From positions 32,001 to 96,000 of the IMG/VR virus record IMGVR_UViG_3300042013_000056: 64,000 nucleotides of DNA; one strand, given 5' to 3'. The stretch's first letter is position 1, and every line of letters starts with the position of its first letter. Both the position numbers and the translations under genes were made by a program. Under the pieces are notes generated by a model. The model saw nothing but the letters and a program-made list of their open reading frames with translations. It made no database searches and was not told where the DNA came from. Source of the stretch: a virus. Shown here one piece after another: positions 2,160 through 64,000 of this stretch.

Positions 2160-2267
2160 CTTTAGGTATTCCTCACATGGTTTGAGTTGAAACAGTGGTT
2201 GTTCTGTTTCGTTGGATGAATCATACGACGTTTGGTGGTCGATCTAAACATTGGAACAGATTTATTT

Positions 2268-2360
2268 GGTCGAAGGAGTTTCCAGAACATGACCAAATCG
2301 GTCGAACTAGTTTCCGGTGGAGACACTTTTGGTGGACATAGTTTTGGTCGAGATAGTTTT
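2268..2360. repeat. Tandem 15-16 bp iteron-like repeats GGT(C/G)GAnnnA(G/C)TTT(T/C)
   Basis: Units at 2268, 2300, 2316, 2331, 2346; partial copy at 2237; lone copy at 1435. Confidence 0.8.
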
Positions 2361-2631
2361 GAGCTGAATGTTTAATATCCCAAAAAAGTGTGATACCCTA
2401 GAATCTTATTCTGCCGAAAATTCCGATATACCAATCTTATTCAACCCTAATTCACCCCTTCCTGTACCGGTTTGCCTTCCTATATAGAAGCTTTCAAACC
2501 ACACCAACAAAACTCTATGCATATAGATAGCAGCCACAGGCTGCACAGCTTCACAGAAGCTGTTCTATTCCAATAAATTGCTTCCTTTCTTTATAGGTTC
2601 TGTTTCAAAACAGGCTCAGAAGGGCGGATTT

Positions 2632-2768
2632 GATCAAAAAATGAGCAGCGGGGCGGTCAAATGCGAAAAATTCCCAAAAACCGACCCTGAATGAGACATT
2701 TTCGCATTTGAACCCCAAAATCGATCAAAAAATGAGCAAAATCCCGGATTTTCCAGCCCAAATGCGAA
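2632..2768. repeat. Direct repeats GATCAAAAAATGAGCA x2 and CAAATGCGAA x2 plus an inverted copy
   Basis: 16-mers at 2632 and 2723; 10-mers at 2658 and 2759; inverted TTCGCATTTG at 2701. Confidence 0.8.
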
Positions 2769-2943
2769 TGGATCGCCCTAACCCCAGAAGGGGAGATGTC
2801 AAATAACAACCATTCGCATTACCGGACGAACGCCCACCCTCCCCGTTTGTCTCCGGGTTCGTACCACCCCGCTTTCTGTTTCATGTCCAAAGTATAACAC
2901 ACCCGGAACAGAACACAACCCCCAAACCAAAATAATTTCAAAC

Positions 2944-2967
2944 AAAAAAGGCCACCCGAAGGCAGCC
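2944..2967 (-). terminator. Intrinsic terminator with UUCG tetraloop
   Basis: Minus strand GGCUGCC-UUCG-GGUGGCC-UUUUUU just after the kinase gene. Confidence 0.85.
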
Positions 2968-2986
2968 CATTTGTCAATCATTTTGT

Positions 2987-4579
2987 TTATGCAGCGAGCT
3001 TTGCACCCATGGTATCCATTGAAAAGTTCCCACCACACAGCGGGTCTGTCAATACCAGAGTTCTGACATCATTGTCAACCCGCCACATAACATTACCCGG
3101 ATGGATGTCGTATGTACCGTTAATTTCGCTATGGGTGTCGCGTACAACTTCAAACAGGTTAATTGCATCATCCCCATTACAGCCAAATTCACGTTTGATA
3201 GTAGAAAGTTCACTATTTCGAAACGCTTGCATTTTACCGGCGTTTCGTTCTCTAAACTCGGTTTGTTCAACATCTGTCAGCGGTTCGAGTCGTTCAATCT
3301 TGGCGCAGTATGTTGTGCCCATTCGGGCGATTTTATCAATCTTCGGGAAGTTCTTAGAACTGCCGTTTAACTTGACGTTAACCGCATATGCAAACCAACC
3401 ATCCAGAGAATCGCTGTTACAGTTGACCTTATAAACCCAACCATCAGGCCCAAGGTATGCATTAGACCAGCAACCCTCACCCAGATAGGAAAACCCCTGT
3501 TCTTTTAAACGCTCTGTACAGAGTTGCACCGCCGTATGCATACGCCCATTGCCATAATATCGAACTTCTGAAAAAAACCAAGCAATTCGCTTCGCAACAT
3601 CAACACCCGGTTTATTCAGGTCACGCAAAATATCATTTGCAAGTTGTTCATAAATCTTTTTGAACTTTGCGGTTTTAAGTTTCCGCTTTCTATCGGATTC
3701 TTTCCTATTTGCTACCTGTTCGGCTTCCAGTCTGGCGTCTCGCTCTAACTGTTCAATCCGCTTTGCTTCGCGTTGTTCAGTATTAAGATGCGGGTCCGGT
3801 TTAAACATGTTTTGCCACGCACCAAACAAACCATCATCATCAATACGGAAACCGTCCAGAATGCCATGCAAGCCACCGACATGCACCGGATGTATCGGTT
3901 CAGCCTCACGCCATCCAAGTGTCAGCGGCGGCAAGGCTTCACGTTTGCGCCCATGGATCAAACCCTTTAAAGCCGGGTGACCATAGCCGATACCGGGTTT
4001 AACGCCTTGTGCGTCCTTCCAGAAGGCTTTAAGGGCTGCTACCGGGTTATGTTTGGCAGTTCTCGGTTTGATATGGTGAATCGGCAGCAAATCATCAGCC
4101 AAGATACGAACGTTTTTAAAATCGCCCATCTTGAACGCAAGTTGTGCATGGTCACGATCTTTACGATCTTTAGGAACTTTGAGCTTGAGAAATGGGTTCG
4201 CTACTTCCGGGAATTTATCAACCATATCATCCCGACACACAACGCCTTCAAATTCACGCGGGCGAGCGTCAAAAAATCCAGCCGGGTCAATAACAATATT
4301 TCGCGCAGGGCGGCCAAAACGGCCAAACTGTTGGTTAAGTTGCCATTTGTCCCAGATGTCACGCATGGGGCCAGCAATACCGGGAACACCGAATTTATCA
4401 AATGGATTTTGGACAACTTCCATATCAAACACAATATTTTTGATATCATGTTTTGCAAAATCGCCAGCTTTCGGCCAATCGAACTTGATATTATCATTTG
4501 CATTCATTGCAGCACCTAACAAACGGATTTGTTCTAGGGTAACTTTCGGACCAGTCAACAACTTCATACCATTAAGCAT
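2987..4579 (-). CDS. T7 gp0.7-like Ser/Thr protein kinase with long N-terminal extension
   Basis: C-terminal LGEGCWSNAY, VYKV, DIHPGNVM, LVLTDPL; start moved to ATG 4579 (GAGG upstream, coupled to upstream stop). Confidence 0.78.
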   Translation of the reverse strand: MLNGMKLLTGPKVTLEQIRLLGAAMNANDNIKFDWPKAGDFAKHDIKNIVFDMEVVQNPFDKFGVPGIAGPMRDIWDKWQLNQQFGRFGRPARNIVIDPAGFFDARPREFEGVVCRDDMVDKFPEVANPFLKLKVPKDRKDRDHAQLAFKMGDFKNVRILADDLLPIHHIKPRTAKHNPVAALKAFWKDAQGVKPGIGYGHPALKGLIHGRKREALPPLTLGWREAEPIHPVHVGGLHGILDGFRIDDDGLFGAWQNMFKPDPHLNTEQREAKRIEQLERDARLEAEQVANRKESDRKRKLKTAKFKKIYEQLANDILRDLNKPGVDVAKRIAWFFSEVRYYGNGRMHTAVQLCTERLKEQGFSYLGEGCWSNAYLGPDGWVYKVNCNSDSLDGWFAYAVNVKLNGSSKNFPKIDKIARMGTTYCAKIERLEPLTDVEQTEFRERNAGKMQAFRNSELSTIKREFGCNGDDAINLFEVVRDTHSEINGTYDIHPGNVMWRVDNDVRTLVLTDPLCGGNFSMDTMGAKLAA

Positions 4580-5210
4580 ATTCGGCAACCTCAAAAACCG
4601 GAATTTGATTCGCCAAATAGGCGATAGGGTCATTTAAAACAAGTTGGCCATTCAACCGCATTACATTAGCTGTGTGAATGTCTAGAAACGTCTTGATAAT
4701 CTTTGCATCAATCCTATCGGGGTCAAAATTATCAAACATACCCCGGCTTACTTCGCATTCATTGGCGCAAACTTGCACGGCCAATAGTATCGCATCACGC
4801 AAATAACGATTAGTGCGGCTGGCCCCGTACAGGCTTTCAGGGCCGTCTATTGTCCATTGTTTTTGCAGTGGTTGGACTTCGACACAAAACCGCTGACCAT
4901 GTTGCACAAGCTCGCCAAACTGAGGCAAACAAGGGTTACCCGGTTGTTTGATACAAGCCAACATCCAGTTATAGAAACCATCATACACGCCGTTTAGGTT
5001 TGAATTGATTTTGTATAGCTTGCCGTGCAAACGCCAGACAGAACTATACATCCCAACCCCAACCAAAATATAGCCGCGTTGGTTCATTTCAATTTCAAAC
5101 AATTTCTGTTTGTTTCGCCATGTTCCACCGTCCGACCGAAAGCGGTCTATTTCACGTTGATGGCGAGCTTCGGCATGGGCGAACCGTTCAAGGATGTCAT
5201 TCTGTATCAT
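4572..5210 (-). CDS. T7 gp0.7-like Ser/Thr protein kinase
   Basis: VGVGMYSSVW, LYKI, NPCLP, DIHTANVM, LVLNDPI. Confidence 0.78.
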   Translation of the reverse strand: MIQNDILERFAHAEARHQREIDRFRSDGGTWRNKQKLFEIEMNQRGYILVGVGMYSSVWRLHGKLYKINSNLNGVYDGFYNWMLACIKQPGNPCLPQFGELVQHGQRFCVEVQPLQKQWTIDGPESLYGASRTNRYLRDAILLAVQVCANECEVSRGMFDNFDPDRIDAKIIKTFLDIHTANVMRLNGQLVLNDPIAYLANQIPVFEVAEYA

Positions 5211-5282
5211 GATTCAATTCTGTTCTAATCCAGTGGCGTCCATAATAGAACAGAAAGAAATAGAACACAACCCCCAGACAAG

Positions 5283-5306
5283 AAAAACCCCTTACGGGGT
5301 TTTTTT
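5283..5306. terminator. Bidirectional-type terminator
   Basis: AAAAACCCC-TTAC-GGGGTTTTTTT. Confidence 0.75.
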
Positions 5307-26900: not shown

Positions 26901-27124
26901 GATGCTTTCCTTTCGATTAGTTTGGTTTTAAGCGTTTTCGTTCGCTTGAGCCCATTATAGGTATTGACAAACAGAACACAAGCATTCCAATCGAAGTTTT
27001 TTCACATCCCCTATTGACCATTGCAAATCAATAGGTTAGGCATTACCGTTCGTCGCTTTGGGTCTAGAATCAATTCAACACCCAATAAAAAACCCCGGTT
27101 TCCCGAGGCTTTCTAACCACTATG

Positions 27125-55057: not shown

Positions 55058-55714
55058 TTAATGAATTGGGTCAGTGAGAACCAGTTGCGAGTTTCTACGC
55101 ATCCAGTTAGCACCATGACAGTCAATCGTTACCTTAGTACCCTTACCGGCTAACCAAAGAACAATGTCGGCCAGATGTGTATGACTATAGCCACCCATCC
55201 AACGCAAGTCAAACCAAGAATTCAAATAATAACTAATCCGTTGACGCTTCCGCTTCCGGGTCATATTCATCACCCCGAACATCGGTGAACGAACTGCTTT
55301 AACCACGTTCCACATACCAACACTATGGTCGATTTGGGCGTCTTCAAGCAGTTCCATGCGGGAAACACACCACCCACCAAGCTCGTACAGTTCGAACACC
55401 TTTGGCAGCATCGGATTCGATTCGTGGTGATCCAACGCAAATTTTGCGTATTCGACCCACTTATCCCGCCGATTATAAACCAGTTTGATCGCACCATCAC
55501 GGTTCGGGTGTGAGATAACAATCGAGTACATCCCGGCCCCGAGAATTTTACACCCGTAAAATTTCAACTGTTCGATGAAATATGTACGATCCAAACTCTC
55601 ATCGTCTTTGAACAGATTAGTCATACGTTCAGGGATTTTACTGAGGTCGCCCCACACAACCATATCGGAAATGATAGAATACCGATCCAATAACCGCGAC
55701 ATTACATCGTCCAT
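55058..55714 (-). CDS. T7 gp0.7-like Ser/Thr protein kinase
   Basis: GCKILGAGMYSIVISHP, AIKL, NPMLPKV, DCHGANWM, LVLTDPI. Confidence 0.8.
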   Translation of the reverse strand: MDDVMSRLLDRYSIISDMVVWGDLSKIPERMTNLFKDDESLDRTYFIEQLKFYGCKILGAGMYSIVISHPNRDGAIKLVYNRRDKWVEYAKFALDHHESNPMLPKVFELYELGGWCVSRMELLEDAQIDHSVGMWNVVKAVRSPMFGVMNMTRKRKRQRISYYLNSWFDLRWMGGYSHTHLADIVLWLAGKGTKVTIDCHGANWMRRNSQLVLTDPIH

Positions 55715-56607
55715 TCGAAAACATTACCTTCAACAAGCTCTTTGGAATTTGATGTGCCGAACGGATCGTTCACCACCGGGATTTTACCACGAAGCATCAT
55801 ATTGAAATCTGACAGGTCATCGCCATTGTTATTATTGACTTTGACCGCAGTTGCATCAAACACCATGGACATCTGAATCAGGTCGTCGCGGTTGATAGCA
55901 GCCATGAAAACAAACGTCTCATGTTCCATCATGTCGCTGATGTATTCGCCAAAGTTCAAGTCTGGGTGATACGACTCTGCCAAATCACGGAAGCAGCCAC
56001 CATCCGGGGCTTCCACGTCATGATTTTCATGCAGGCTTTCAACAACCATCGCATAGACACCACCCTTTTGATACAAAGCGGCGATCTTCGGTGCAAAGAT
56101 GTTGCCTTGAATCTCAGTGCATGCCTTAGCCCAATCGAAACCGCCGTCTTCACCCCACTCATAGGCGACATCAGCGATGTTCATTTTGATGATCCATTGT
56201 TCACTCAGACGGTATGCAACGCTGAACGAACCAGACCCAAGGTGGCTGAATACCGATTCCATTGCAGATGTTGCAAATTCACGATCAATCCCAACACCAG
56301 ATTCATGACCGGCATAGTCAGCACCCAGACTTTCTTCACTGGCATATTCAGTGAACAGTTCGACCAAAGCTTTGGGAATTTGGGTAATGTCCATGGATTT
56401 GATGATCTTCAACTGACTATCAACATGATTCCGAGCGATATCCCATTGAGTCTTTTCATCTGGAATGAAATCAACCGGTGATTCAATTGTATCAATCACC
56501 CGTGGCGTTTGAACATCCAGTTGATTGATCTGATGCAAGTACATGTGGCACACGTCCATATCAACAAACGGACGTACTTCGGCCAAGAGTTGTTGTTCCA
56601 GCTCCAT
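55702..56607 (-). CDS. T7 gp0.7-like kinase with divergent catalytic loop
   Basis: HLGSGSFSVAY, IIKM, FAPKI, DLSDFNMM, VVNDPF. Confidence 0.7.
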   Translation of the reverse strand: MELEQQLLAEVRPFVDMDVCHMYLHQINQLDVQTPRVIDTIESPVDFIPDEKTQWDIARNHVDSQLKIIKSMDITQIPKALVELFTEYASEESLGADYAGHESGVGIDREFATSAMESVFSHLGSGSFSVAYRLSEQWIIKMNIADVAYEWGEDGGFDWAKACTEIQGNIFAPKIAALYQKGGVYAMVVESLHENHDVEAPDGGCFRDLAESYHPDLNFGEYISDMMEHETFVFMAAINRDDLIQMSMVFDATAVKVNNNNGDDLSDFNMMLRGKIPVVNDPFGTSNSKELVEGNVFEWTM

Positions 56608-56671
56608 TCCCCAAATCCCCAATACTAAAATTGTCTGTCATCGCCTCGTTTTGTTCCAAGGCGTATGCGAT

Positions 56672-57151
56672 TCAGTTATTTTCCAGAAGTTTCTGTGCCC
56701 GGTCAAGCTCCAAATACGAAATTTGGTACTTTTTCATTCTGTTGATGTCATTTTCTGTAACACCTTTCAGACGCGTCAGACTGGAATTGTGTTTGATGTC
56801 GCCTTTTTTGATCTTGATCAGACGAACATTTTGTGATTTCACGATCCGATCAATGAACACCCGATACGATTCATCAGGGCGACGGGTCAGCGCATCAACC
56901 AAACTTAACAATGCAATACGGTTATATTTCATTGCGATGTTGACAAGCCGATCCATGTAATCAGGTTTATCTTCTTTCAGGTCATGGGCGAAGGCAGCGG
57001 CCAGATAAACGTCACTGTCAACACCCATGTGACGGGCATTCTCCATGACGGCGAAGCAATGCAGCACGTAAGGACGACCGCCCTTATCAACATCGTTCGC
57101 AAACGCTTCCGACACCAACGCAATTACTTCACCTAGGAGAGTTCCCATCAC
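56672..57151 (-). CDS. HD-domain (p)ppGpp hydrolase-like protein (RelA/SpoT HD, Mesh1-type)
   Basis: DKGG.PY..H...V...AA..HD..ED, LTRR..ESY..FI.RI, IK..DI.HN. Confidence 0.8.
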   Translation of the reverse strand: MMGTLLGEVIALVSEAFANDVDKGGRPYVLHCFAVMENARHMGVDSDVYLAAAFAHDLKEDKPDYMDRLVNIAMKYNRIALLSLVDALTRRPDESYRVFIDRIVKSQNVRLIKIKKGDIKHNSSLTRLKGVTENDINRMKKYQISYLELDRAQKLLENN

Positions 57152-60965: not shown

Positions 60966-61199
60966 TTACGAAACCCACTGCAACGAACCATATTGCTGTG
61001 CAACCGCGATATCTCTCACGTAGTCGCAGACACCACCAGCCAACGCACGATCAACAAACAATGTGCGAATGCAGATGTTCAGGACATTATTCATATCAAT
61101 CCCACCGGCATATACACCAGTTTCCCATGCGTTATAGATGGTAGGTTCAATCTCAGCGACTGCAAACCGCATGAATTCGGCTTCTGATACCTCACGCAT
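60966..61199 (-). CDS. Hypothetical protein
   Basis: Start moved to ATG 61199, overlapping upstream stop. Confidence 0.55.
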   Translation of the reverse strand: MREVSEAEFMRFAVAEIEPTIYNAWETGVYAGGIDMNNVLNICIRTLFVDRALAGGVCDYVRDIAVAQQYGSLQWVS

Positions 61200-61989
61200 C
61201 GTAATAACTCCTGTCCAGAAAGGCGACATCTTCCCCGGCGTAACCGTATGGGTTACAGATAACGTTCGTACAACCAATGATATAATCGCTTGGTGAGTGA
61301 ATATGACCATGCAACCAATGGGTAATCTGTGGGTGACAGTGAATGAACTGATCCAAGTCACTGTGGTAGCCGTGGTTTCCGTCGATATCCCAAGCAAAAT
61401 TTGGATCAATGCTTTGATAGCTAGGTGCGTGGTGCGTAACCACAATACACGGTTCATCAGAGGCTTCGACGGTTTCTGCGATGTAAGATAAATCGGCTTT
61501 GTGTTCCATTAACCAGTGATGTGGTTTGTATCTTTGATAGTTCTGTCTGATCGGATGGAAATATGTGATGGCTTTGAAATCGTTCATTTTTTGACCAAGG
61601 TGAAATTCCACCAATGGGCATTGACGATTCATGTTCGTCCATAGCGTAGCACCGACGAATCGGACACCATCAATCACAACAGAATCACGAATCAGGAAAT
61701 GAATGTTGGATAACCCTTCCGGGTTCATGTCTTGGAACTTCTTTCTTGCGGCAACTGGATCAATCCGGTAACCGTAATACTCATGGTTCCCCGGAACATA
61801 CACAACAGCTTTGAATCGTTTTGCCATGGATGTCAACGCATCAGCCGTTTTAGCAGCACGCTTGAGCATAGTGAAATCACCGGCAATGACCAGAACGCGT
61901 TCACTATCGCCACCCAGATACGGCAAGGTATATTGGGCGGCTTCGTGATAAAACTCATTGTGTACATCGGATATTAACCGAAATTCCAT
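61192..61989 (-). CDS. Calcineurin-like metallophosphoesterase
   Basis: SDVH, AGDF, PGNHEYY, GATLWT, THHAPS, HGHIH, NP.GY. Confidence 0.9.
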   Translation of the reverse strand: MEFRLISDVHNEFYHEAAQYTLPYLGGDSERVLVIAGDFTMLKRAAKTADALTSMAKRFKAVVYVPGNHEYYGYRIDPVAARKKFQDMNPEGLSNIHFLIRDSVVIDGVRFVGATLWTNMNRQCPLVEFHLGQKMNDFKAITYFHPIRQNYQRYKPHHWLMEHKADLSYIAETVEASDEPCIVVTHHAPSYQSIDPNFAWDIDGNHGYHSDLDQFIHCHPQITHWLHGHIHSPSDYIIGCTNVICNPYGYAGEDVAFLDRSYYDA

Positions 61990-62337: not shown

Positions 62338-63786
62338 TTACGCAACTTTGATGTCGTCGAAAGTCCATTCAGTCTGGAAATCGCCGTCTTCCCAGACGGT
62401 GTACATCTGGTCAACGATCTTGTGATTGGTCAGTTGCAGTTCTTCACGGTCAGAGAAGAATTTACCTTCTGCGTCCTTGTAGGTAACCACACGACCTTTC
62501 TTGGAACGTTTCACCGAGTCGGTGTCCGGGTCTTTGAACAGATCACGCCAGATGCCGTCTACACACAGTGCAGAAGCTTTCATTGCGAACTTGAACCAGT
62601 CACGGTCGCAGTGTTGCAGCAAAGCACCACCCATACCGAACACGATGTTATCGGCAGAGTACATCAGTGCGAACATATTGGCGTAGATACCACGAATACT
62701 TGCTTCGTTGATACCGTCGCCTTGCAGAACGCGGATGCAGCTTGGCAGAACCTTGTAACCTTTGCTGTTGACGGTGTAACCGAAACCTTCCATCAAAATA
62801 CCGATGATCTTGACCGGAATATCCAGAGGATTGCCTGAGTCTGGACGCACTACGAAAGTGCCACCAGAATTCATCACACGGGTTTTGATAGGATCGCTGG
62901 CAACCCAGCGGGCGAAACGTTCGATGCTGTAGGTATCACCCACACATGCAACGATACCGCCGTGTTTTTCCAGCAACTGAACGGCCATTTCCAGAGCGTC
63001 AGAGTCGTCGCGGTTGTCTGCATCGGAGTTTGCGCAAACAACAGAGTGTTCAGTCGCACGCACCGAGAACGCAGGCATTTGCCCTTTCTTCAAGCCGTAG
63101 TATTCTTTCAGTTCCACGATACCTTGAATGGTATCTGTGCCCATCCAACCGGCTGCAAGGTGGGCAGCACCGCCGATACGGGCGGATTCAACACTGGACA
63201 CGCCACGGAAGCCGAAATCATGCAGTTTGAAGCGACTTTCAGTTCCATCATCAACAGTCAAATCGAAAGCTTGTTGAACGACTTTACGGATGCTGTACGA
63301 AACAGAAGCCACGGTTGTTGGATACCAGACTTGCAGGAACAGCGGCTCGAAGTACGAAACCAGCCATGCGAAATCCGGGTGGGTGTTTTCTACGGTCATC
63401 ATGACGTTACCGGTTGGAACAATAGTTCCTTCCTTCAACGCACGGATACGCAGTGGCAGACGACCTTTGAACTTGGTAACGATTTGTTCCCAACCTTTAC
63501 GGTTGAAGATACCCGGCCCCATGTGCAGTTCAACCATTTCTTCGGCTTCGTCCACATCTTTCATGGTCAGACGACCGGAGAAGTGACGTTTCAGAATGGC
63601 TTGCAGGCCGATGAAAACTGTTTCGGTGTAGCCTTGATTTACACCACGAACCGCCCATTGATCAGAACCACGCGATTCCACGTAGGAATACAGGTAGTTC
63701 GCACCAGCCGGGAGCATTTCCCAGTGTGGAATCTTGTAGGAATCGGTTTTCAGAATCATGTTGTTTGGATTAAATGCAGCGCCCAT
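62338..63786 (-). CDS. nadV: Nicotinamide phosphoribosyltransferase (NAMPT)
   Basis: LKTDSYK..H, Y.ESRG, HDFGFRG, GTDT..G, ATEHS, V.DTY, VVRPDSG, QGDG, FGMGGALLQ, K.SKKG; start moved to ATG 63786. Confidence 0.95.
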   Translation of the reverse strand: MGAAFNPNNMILKTDSYKIPHWEMLPAGANYLYSYVESRGSDQWAVRGVNQGYTETVFIGLQAILKRHFSGRLTMKDVDEAEEMVELHMGPGIFNRKGWEQIVTKFKGRLPLRIRALKEGTIVPTGNVMMTVENTHPDFAWLVSYFEPLFLQVWYPTTVASVSYSIRKVVQQAFDLTVDDGTESRFKLHDFGFRGVSSVESARIGGAAHLAAGWMGTDTIQGIVELKEYYGLKKGQMPAFSVRATEHSVVCANSDADNRDDSDALEMAVQLLEKHGGIVACVGDTYSIERFARWVASDPIKTRVMNSGGTFVVRPDSGNPLDIPVKIIGILMEGFGYTVNSKGYKVLPSCIRVLQGDGINEASIRGIYANMFALMYSADNIVFGMGGALLQHCDRDWFKFAMKASALCVDGIWRDLFKDPDTDSVKRSKKGRVVTYKDAEGKFFSDREELQLTNHKIVDQMYTVWEDGDFQTEWTFDDIKVA

Positions 63787-63811
63787 CTTTTTGAACCCCT
63801 CAAAAATTGAA

Positions 63812-64000
63812 TTATTTGTCTTGTTTCGCAGCACGACCGATCATGGTCATGATGATATTGTGATGATCTTCGAAGAAATCAGTTGCCTTTTCAGGGGCCA
63901 TGATATCCGCGATAGGAACCCAGAACGCCTTGTCTGCATCATCGGAACCGTAAACCCGTGGCAAACTACCGTCATGATTTGTATCAATCTTGAAGGTGTG
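63812..64000 (-). CDS. C-terminal end of a Nudix hydrolase, likely a bifunctional NMNAT/ADP-ribose pyrophosphatase (partial)
   Basis: Hand-translated ...LPRVYGSDDADKAFWVPI...FFEDHHNII; abuts NAMPT; N-terminus outside window. Confidence 0.75.
   Translation of the reverse strand, partial: HTFKIDTNHDGSLPRVYGSDDADKAFWVPIADIMAPEKATDFFEDHHNIIMTMIGRAAKQDK

Follow-up and report, generated by a model that had tools for sequence, protein, structure and literature searches.

The protein kinase of bacteriophage T7 (T7K, the product gp0.7 of gene 0.7) phosphorylates almost the entire proteome of the host and thereby disarms many bacterial defences (2026, PMC13645617), and the anti-defence role of its family is described in PMC13645617 and PMC12345140. 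T7K is known mainly from T7-like phages, as a single gene, and its Ser216 is an inhibitory autophosphorylation site (PMC13645617). Outside Autographiviridae the Val of the DPV motif is less conserved, and the homologues found in jumbophages and prophages lack the C-terminal shut-off domain (PMC13645617). Bartolec et al. (2026, Nature, PMC13645617) report 46 clusters of the family; paralog sets and fusions are not discussed there. The stretch of DNA analysed here (the window, 64,000 nucleotides) covers bases 32001-96000 of the 182,859-bp IMG/VR record IMGVR_UViG_3300042013_000056, which is rated complete by CheckV. It encodes four kinases, named K1 to K4, which form two tandem pairs: K2 followed by K1 (pair A) and K4 followed by K3 (pair B) (Table 1). 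Judged by their sequences, the four genes truly belong to the T7K family, and their arrangement is new: the family occurs here as a conserved multi-kinase set in fixed pairs.

All four proteins match phrog_15752, which is annotated as T7-type protein kinase, with E-values from 5e-13 to 9e-4. A profile of the window kinases aligns to T7 gp0.7 with an hhalign probability of 97.5% (E 5e-12), and T7 gp0.7 is recognized by a family profile of 84 sequences that does not contain it (E 8e-28). The K1 orthologs P0008-P0013 carry the Pfam domain PF27024 (Phage_T7_kinase), and the four proteins themselves have no match at E up to 1 in a copy of Pfam that includes the Pkinase profile and is without PF27024. 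A profile search of the whole genome finds exactly these four copies. A previous sequence-only reading had assigned the four open reading frames (ORFs) to the T7 gp0.7 family, and this assignment is upheld by the PHROG matches, by the hhalign result and by the predicted fold. The ORFs lie on the minus strand where that reading had placed them, with every motif it quoted, and the motifs that it gave for T7 gp0.7 (LGNGHFSAAY, VIKV, DMHSGN and ITDPV) are correct when compared with the real T7 gene, which was taken from NC_001604.

In the alignment of T7 gp0.7 with K1-K4, the residues G74, G76, S79, K93, D195, N200, D213 and P214 (T7 numbering) are invariant, so the Gly residues of the glycine loop and the ATP-binding Lys are kept in all four. 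The catalytic loop reads DIHPGN in K1, DIHTAN in K2, DCHGAN in K3 and DLSDFN in K4, in which Ser replaces His; K2 keeps the complete series G-G-K-D-H-N-D-P. Asp-Pro is invariant in the place of DFG, and it is followed by Leu in K1, Ile in K2 and K3 and Phe in K4 instead of the Val of T7K. Of 215 family domains aligned with hmmalign, 214 keep the Lys, 214 the Asn and 214 the Mg-binding Asp, 212 keep the catalytic Asp and 212 the Pro, and K1-K4 have all of these residues. The chain ends two residues after the Asp-Pro motif in K3 and 14-19 residues after it in K1, K2 and K4. T7K and the window kinases are alike in the glycine loop, the Lys, the D-x-H-x-x-N loop and the Asp-Pro pair, as well as in a core that stops right after this pair, and they belong to one family (PHROG 2828/15752, PF27024), almost confined to phages, that also includes JSS1_004 of Salmonella phage JSS1.

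The models predicted with AlphaFold2 (AF2) adopt a kinase fold, as the sequence-only reading had expected. K4, the most divergent copy, is modelled with a predicted local distance difference test score (pLDDT) of 87.6 and a predicted template modelling score (pTM) of 0.81, and the kinase domain of K1 (residues 364-530) has a pLDDT above 95. In BFVD, the K4 model is closest to T7-like phage protein kinases (E from 7e-10, probability 1.00), and the best matches of the K1 model are Autographiviridae protein kinases (E 1.6e-9, probability 1.00). A full-alignment search of 48,161 PDB representatives with the K4 model lists almost exclusively protein kinases, such as Mps1, BRAF, PknE, PknB, Rad53 and RIO2, with Z-scores of 5.6-7.7 over 120-150 aligned residues, and the aligned part of these solved kinases runs only from the N-lobe to the DFG motif (residues 7-159 in PknB). 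According to the models, the T7K-type core consists of the N-lobe, helices D-E, the catalytic loop and the Mg-binding motif. Since the chains end at or near the Asp-Pro motif, which is the DFG equivalent, the core has no activation loop or segment and no lower-lobe substrate platform, and the two-lobed eukaryote-type domain with an activation segment and helices F to I is not found. Matches of sequence profiles to the PDB are weak and all to protein kinases, the sequence search of the PDB with K1 returned nothing relevant, and no member of the family has a solved structure.

K1 has a long addition before the core. Its AF2 model has a low-confidence region of about 250 residues, a long helix at residues 267-318 and then the kinase domain. 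Residues 1-256 have four Thr, one Tyr and no Ser at all, so that the three make up 2.0% of the region compared with a mean of 16.5% for the proteins of this phage (binomial P 2.6e-14 against the proteome frequency), and the first Ser of the protein is residue 295. The lowest Ser/Thr/Tyr content of any 250-residue window in the proteome is found in K1 (1.6%), and the lowest in any other gene is 6.8%. The same N-terminal region in the long K1 orthologs has 0.9-5.3% Ser, Thr and Tyr, while their kinase domains have 12-19%. The region is basic (pI 9.4-9.7) and contains a motif whose W, K, G, HPA, KG and R are invariant across eight orthologs of 30-72% identity; a related HPARKG...GR motif is found in the 344-aa ortholog of Pseudomonas phage Astolliot. 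An ESM Atlas look-up of the region gave no usable match, and the Atlas model is poor. The Ser/Thr/Tyr depletion of T7 early proteins has been tied to the hyperpromiscuity of T7K (Bartolec et al. 2026, PMC13645617). A chain that is tethered beside an active site and purged of acceptor residues points to a promiscuous protein kinase and not to a small-molecule kinase, and we infer that the depletion in K1 fits such an enzyme. The second-lowest window, with the 6.8% given above, belongs to a 586-aa ORF outside the window (G000:144987-146747, minus strand).

The source phage is, by its gene content, a T4-like myovirus of about 183 kb, because its major capsid protein is of the T4 gp23 type and T4-like small genes such as Phage_30_3 and glutaredoxin are found in its neighbourhoods. 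(L009-L015, L017 and L022-L024 are the metagenomic loci compared, and P-numbers designate their proteins or related ones.) Its DNA is present in rhizosphere, plant and food metagenomes of several studies. The window has no match in a nucleotide search against a phage collection, single-sequence scans of IMG/VR with K3 and K1 gave no confirmed relatives, and the 64-kb window has no tRNA genes. The nearest isolates are the Pseudomonas phages Astolliot (OM982621) and Milchi (PQ464597), whose kinases are just 25-38% identical to those of the window. Both isolates have the same two loci, one with the order HD hydrolase, K4-type, K3-type and small lipoprotein and the other with a run of K2-type and K1-type genes, and they differ from the window by an extra K1-type copy, which makes three genes in a row, and by a weak sixth match. 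All but one of their kinase genes are labelled hypothetical in GenBank, and the paper on Milchi does not mention protein kinases (PMC11780129).

The mutual identity of K1-K4 is 17-25% over the profile match columns, and each is as distant from T7K as the four are from one another. In a FastTree tree of the 215 family domains, K1 groups with the 344- and 247-aa genes of Astolliot (support 0.88), K2 with its 194-aa gene (0.95), K3 with its 217-aa gene (1.0) and K4 with its 258-aa gene (0.996), and the deeper branching among the four clades has no resolution. The K2-type gene is followed by the K1-type gene in L012, L013/L014, L022 and L023, where K1 identity falls to 30-33%, and the K4-type gene is followed by the K3-type gene in L009-L011 and L024, where K3 identity is 37%. 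Astolliot and Milchi keep both pair orders, and the pairings are intact in every relative examined. The low identity, the four supported ortholog clades and the conserved pair order indicate that the four copies are an old, non-redundant set and not recent duplicates. The multi-kinase set proposed from the sequence is thus real and conserved, and the T4-like 183-kb genome carries four diverged copies where the 40-kb podovirus T7 has one. The homologues of phages Munch (Salmonella) and G17 (Escherichia) (PMC13645617) are likewise diverged, belong to large myoviruses and possess neither a shut-off domain nor the conserved Val. Each has been described as a single gene, whereas the clade analysed here maintains four to six copies in a constant paired arrangement.

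Each pair is a tandem in which stop and start overlap, in agreement with the sequence-only reading. The longest ORFs extend over 2987-4633 for K1, 55702-56622 for K4 (with a TTG start) and 55058-55714 for K3. The most likely start of K1 is the ATG at 4579, because a GAGG lies 9 nt upstream, the resulting 8-nt overlap with the stop of K2 (ATGCTTAA) also appears in the gene calls of relatives, and the 530-aa form is contained, letter-identical, in the ESM Atlas; the alternative ATG at 4633, that of the longest ORF, would give an overlap of 62 nt. K3 starts either at ATG 55702, where TAATG gives a 1-nt overlap, or at 55714 with a 13-nt overlap, and its relatives P0001/P0002 (the K3 orthologs are P0001-P0007) have 214 aa, which fits the start at 55702. 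Overlaps of this kind are frequent in these phages, being found in about one third of the adjacent gene pairs of L009, so the stop/start overlap on its own is not special and says little about coupling.

The family greatly exceeds its reported size, and tandem arrangements are frequent in it. When 1.84 billion cluster representatives were searched with a profile, 3,685 clusters reached E <=1e-3 and 444 of these E <=1e-10; most members have 170-220 aa. Two to five family domains lie in one polypeptide in 23 of the best 150 clusters. P0014 (L015:193-3258) has 1,021 aa with five intact kinase domains and is open under table 11 on two independent contigs, and P0015 (L017:6001-9025) is encoded by a four-domain kinase gene with a separate fifth kinase gene 2 nt downstream, an arrangement which indicates that neighbouring kinase genes fuse and split. 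By their conserved residues, the fused proteins reveal a general propensity of the family for arrays of predicted active domains. A literature search on tandem kinases of phages found nothing. More than one copy per genome may be commoner than assumed. The usual rule of one kinase per phage holds for T7-like phages and for the G17-like jumbophage UE-S1 (one copy; Hallingskeid has one strong and one weak), and it fails for Astolliot and Milchi, each with five strong copies and one weak, and for the many metagenomic phages with two to five fused domains. Some small podoviruses also appear to have two T7K-like proteins, as in Acinetobacter phage Acibel007 (A0A075DX47 and A0A075DXA5, BFVD).

The two pairs have different surroundings. 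The promoter block before K2-K1 is conserved in L012, L013, L022 and L023 (TTGCAT, about 17 nt, TATGAT), and the hairpin upstream of it shows compensatory changes in relatives (GCCC-TTCG-GGGC). K2 and K1 are, on these sequence signals, an operon of their own with two genes, which is probably read early by the host polymerase, as T7 gene 0.7 is, because the conserved promoter is sigma-70-like. K4 and K3 follow the HD hydrolase gene in a longer unit. The two temporal classes that had been proposed for the pairs are not borne out, since a recognisable conserved sigma-70-like promoter exists at pair A only; the T4-type late promoter TATAAATA was considered as a marker of temporal class and rejected, because its six copies in the genome are too few for an assignment.

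The HD gene occupies the same position in all relatives of pair B, namely L009-L011, L024, Astolliot and Milchi. The lipoprotein gene downstream corresponds to an 87-aa gene at the same place in L009-L011 and L024, and its counterpart in Astolliot has 82 aa and is weakly Cor-like. A metallophosphoesterase and an HAD enzyme had been named as possible erasers of the phosphorylation, a suggestion which is not supported here: the metallophosphoesterase (61192-61989, minus strand) is a generic phrog_1649 member 4.5 kb from pair B, the HAD_2 profile (PF13419) has no match in the genome, and the gene actually linked to pair B is the HD hydrolase, which is not of a protein phosphatase family. An HD_4 gene (L017:5476-5925) also adjoins the four-domain kinase, in divergent orientation, so two unrelated contexts link a small HD hydrolase to T7K-type kinases, which suggests a functional tie between putative alarmone or nucleotide hydrolysis and these kinases. 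A gene of the anti-Gabija family Gad2 lies a few kb from the kinase on both L015 and L017.

Table 1. Coordinates of the kinase genes, of parts of K1 and of neighbouring features in the window
Feature	Position	Strand	Description	Basis
K2	4572..5210	minus	212-aa minimal T7K-type kinase, first gene of pair A	phrog_15752, E 1.3e-7
K1	2987..4579	minus	530 aa, second gene of pair A, the most T7K-like copy	phrog_15752, E 2.8e-12
K4	55702..56607	minus	301-aa acidic kinase, isoelectric point (pI) 4.3, first gene of pair B	phrog_2828, E 6.4e-5; phrog_15752, E 8.7e-4
K3	55058..55702	minus	214-aa minimal kinase, second gene of pair B	phrog_15752, E 5e-13
K1 N-terminal extension, aa 1-256	3812..4579	minus	almost without phospho-acceptor residues	AF2 pLDDT <50
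K1 kinase domain, aa 361-530	2990..3499	minus		alignments to T7 gp0.7 and K2-K4, AF2 model
Motif LKAFWKDAQ..KPGIGYGHPALKGLIHGR	3947..4033	minus	inside the Ser/Thr/Tyr-poor region of K1	nearly invariant in orthologs
Candidate sigma-70-like promoter of the K2-K1 operon	5242..5270	minus	TTGTGT, 17 nt, TATTAT	
Terminator hairpin of the gene upstream of K2	5283..5306	minus	ACCCC-GTAA-GGGGT and T-run	
Terminator directly after K1	2949..2968	minus	kept in four relatives with compensatory loop and stem changes	terminator scan
HD phosphohydrolase	56672..57151	minus	directly upstream of pair B	phrog_990, E 1.3e-33; weak HD_4 and SpoT/RelA-hydrolase likeness
Predicted lipoprotein, 87 aa	54784..55047	minus	directly downstream of pair B	signal-plus-Cys start

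Other features of the region were also observed. The ORF-free stretch of about 830 nt directly downstream of K1 (2160-2986, minus strand) is 72-74% identical over about 700 nt in L022 and L023, where the K1 proteins are 30-33% identical, so this non-coding DNA is far better conserved than the neighbouring gene. It contains a promoter-like block (TTGTGTTCTGTTCC...TATACT), a possible 21-codon ORF (MKQKAGWYEPGDKRGGWAFVR) and 15-nt direct repeats (CTTCGACCAAAACT-like) in three to seven copies, which are perfect in L013; an Rfam search of the stretch found nothing. The stretch may contain an origin or iterons, or it may encode a new RNA. A promoter-like word, TTGTGTTCT..TTC, is found at 2905-2918, 5257-5270 and 26968-26981, all on the minus strand; it has four matches with at most one mismatch where 0.6 would be expected, and the K2-K1 operon lies between two of these. 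A nicotinamide phosphoribosyltransferase gene (62338-63834, minus strand; phrog_448, E 7e-146) lies near the metallophosphoesterase gene and likely serves nicotinamide adenine dinucleotide (NAD) salvage, of the kind used by phages against NAD-depleting defences.

Taken together with what is described for T7K, K1-K4 are probably four active kinases of this family with separate roles in host takeover and anti-defence. By analogy with T7K, they would be constitutively active and weakly selective Ser/Thr/Tyr kinases that phosphorylate proteins of the host in the course of takeover and weaken its defences. It would be the appended parts and the timing that set their specificity, not the catalytic core. 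These parts would be a basic N-terminal region of about 360 residues with an HPAxKG motif in K1 and an acidic helical N-terminus in K4, while K2 and K3 would have none; the basic N-terminus of K1 and the acidic K4 are candidates for aiming the enzymes. The additions of K1 and K4 are N-terminal, and that of T7K is C-terminal. Several points weigh against this interpretation. The C-terminal shut-off and DNA-binding domain of T7K is absent from K1-K4, and so is the inhibitory autophosphorylation Ser that follows DPV in T7 (DPVS), since C, A, H and G stand at this position in K1 (DPLC), K2 (DPIA), K3 (DPIH, followed by the stop) and K4 (DPFG), respectively, so both regulation and targeting must differ from those of T7K. 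The anti-defence role is carried over from T7-like phages by analogy, the phage proteome overall is not depleted of Ser, Thr and Tyr, and the composition of the K1 region could have a cause unrelated to phosphorylation. In addition, aminoglycoside phosphotransferases (APH) are at the top of the Foldseek search of the PDB with K4, with E of about 2e-4 but with a template modelling score (TM) of only about 0.25.

This last point leads to the view that the four are small-molecule kinases of the aminoglycoside or choline kinase type, acting on antibiotic-, sugar- or nucleotide-like substrates. The best PDB matches of K4 in Foldseek are to APH(2''), with probabilities of 0.94-1.00 and E-values of 2e-4 to 3e-3, and the HD hydrolase linked to pair B is of a nucleotide type; the same matches have a root-mean-square deviation of about 16 Å besides their low TM, no APH is among the top rows of the full-alignment search, and the sequence profiles reach protein kinases only. 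Since the chains end at the Asp-Pro motif, they are without the helical substrate pocket of aminoglycoside kinases, the tested members of the T7K family are protein kinases (PMC13645617), and the acceptor-free tether of K1 is hard to explain for a small-molecule kinase, all of which makes this view very improbable. It is also improbable, if a little less so, that one or more copies, K4 first, are non-catalytic and serve as a scaffold of the pseudokinase kind, as a decoy that draws host anti-kinase factors or as a regulator that binds ATP. K4 has the replaced loop His, a strongly acidic composition and the weakest PHROG match; yet it keeps the glycine loop, the Lys, the catalytic Asp, the Asn and the Asp-Pro pair, its clade is conserved with the catalytic residues in Astolliot, and the loop His is found in just 172 of the 215 family domains, so that the one changed residue is one that varies in about 20% of them, including domains of the fused proteins. 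The idea of K4 as a pseudokinase partner is contradicted by this pattern.

The paired kinases could also be obligate partners, as hetero-oligomers or as a short cascade, with each pair being one functional unit. The adjacency and order of K2 and K1 and of K4 and K3, with their stop/start overlap, are strictly kept down to 30-37% protein identity, the family has natural fusions of two to five domains as well as the four-domain gene of L017 with its separate fifth, and the loss of the self-inhibitory Ser of T7K would call for another off-switch. On the other side, tandem duplication alone explains the adjacency of kinases, overlapping neighbours are common in these genomes, and the fused domains, which share 35-55% identity, arose by recent internal duplication and are not orthologs of K1-K4, so they represent no true fusion of these partners and the fused proteins were rejected as proof of an interaction between K4 and K3 or between K2 and K1. 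A complex prediction for K4 and K3 gave a score of 0.00, which, being without controls, speaks neither for nor against binding. Obligate partnership of the pairs is considered unlikely. A broader proposal, which is speculative and has a similarly small chance of being right, is that T7K-type kinases work as multi-kinase machines, in which gene pairs and fusions of two to five domains would be physically coupled assemblies whose diverged, individually active cores have targeting parts in common and inactivate one another through cross-phosphorylation. Such machines may produce a self-timed burst of proteome-wide phosphorylation that replaces the single-chain auto-inhibition of T7K, and the acceptor-free tether of K1, with its one conserved Tyr motif, may be a docking or timing element. 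In plants, tandem kinase proteins of the wheat WTK/Yr15 type have at least two kinase domains in one protein and act in host-parasite conflict, and one of the domains is usually a pseudokinase that serves as a decoy or sensor. The likeness is an analogy only, since the plant proteins belong to an unrelated kinase family and the phage arrays keep the catalytic residues in nearly every domain.

Four active kinases with separate roles are the preferred interpretation. In this T4-like lineage the T7K catalytic core is present in four to six ancient paralogous copies, a fixed set whose members differ in what is appended to the core, and more widely it forms chains of up to five intact kinase domains per protein. 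The Ser/Thr/Tyr-free tether of K1 is a simple sequence signature by which promiscuous kinases of other phages could be predicted. Should every copy have a target range of its own, the phages would possess a small "kinome" with which to take over the host, an idea which the culturable relatives Astolliot and Milchi of Pseudomonas make directly testable.

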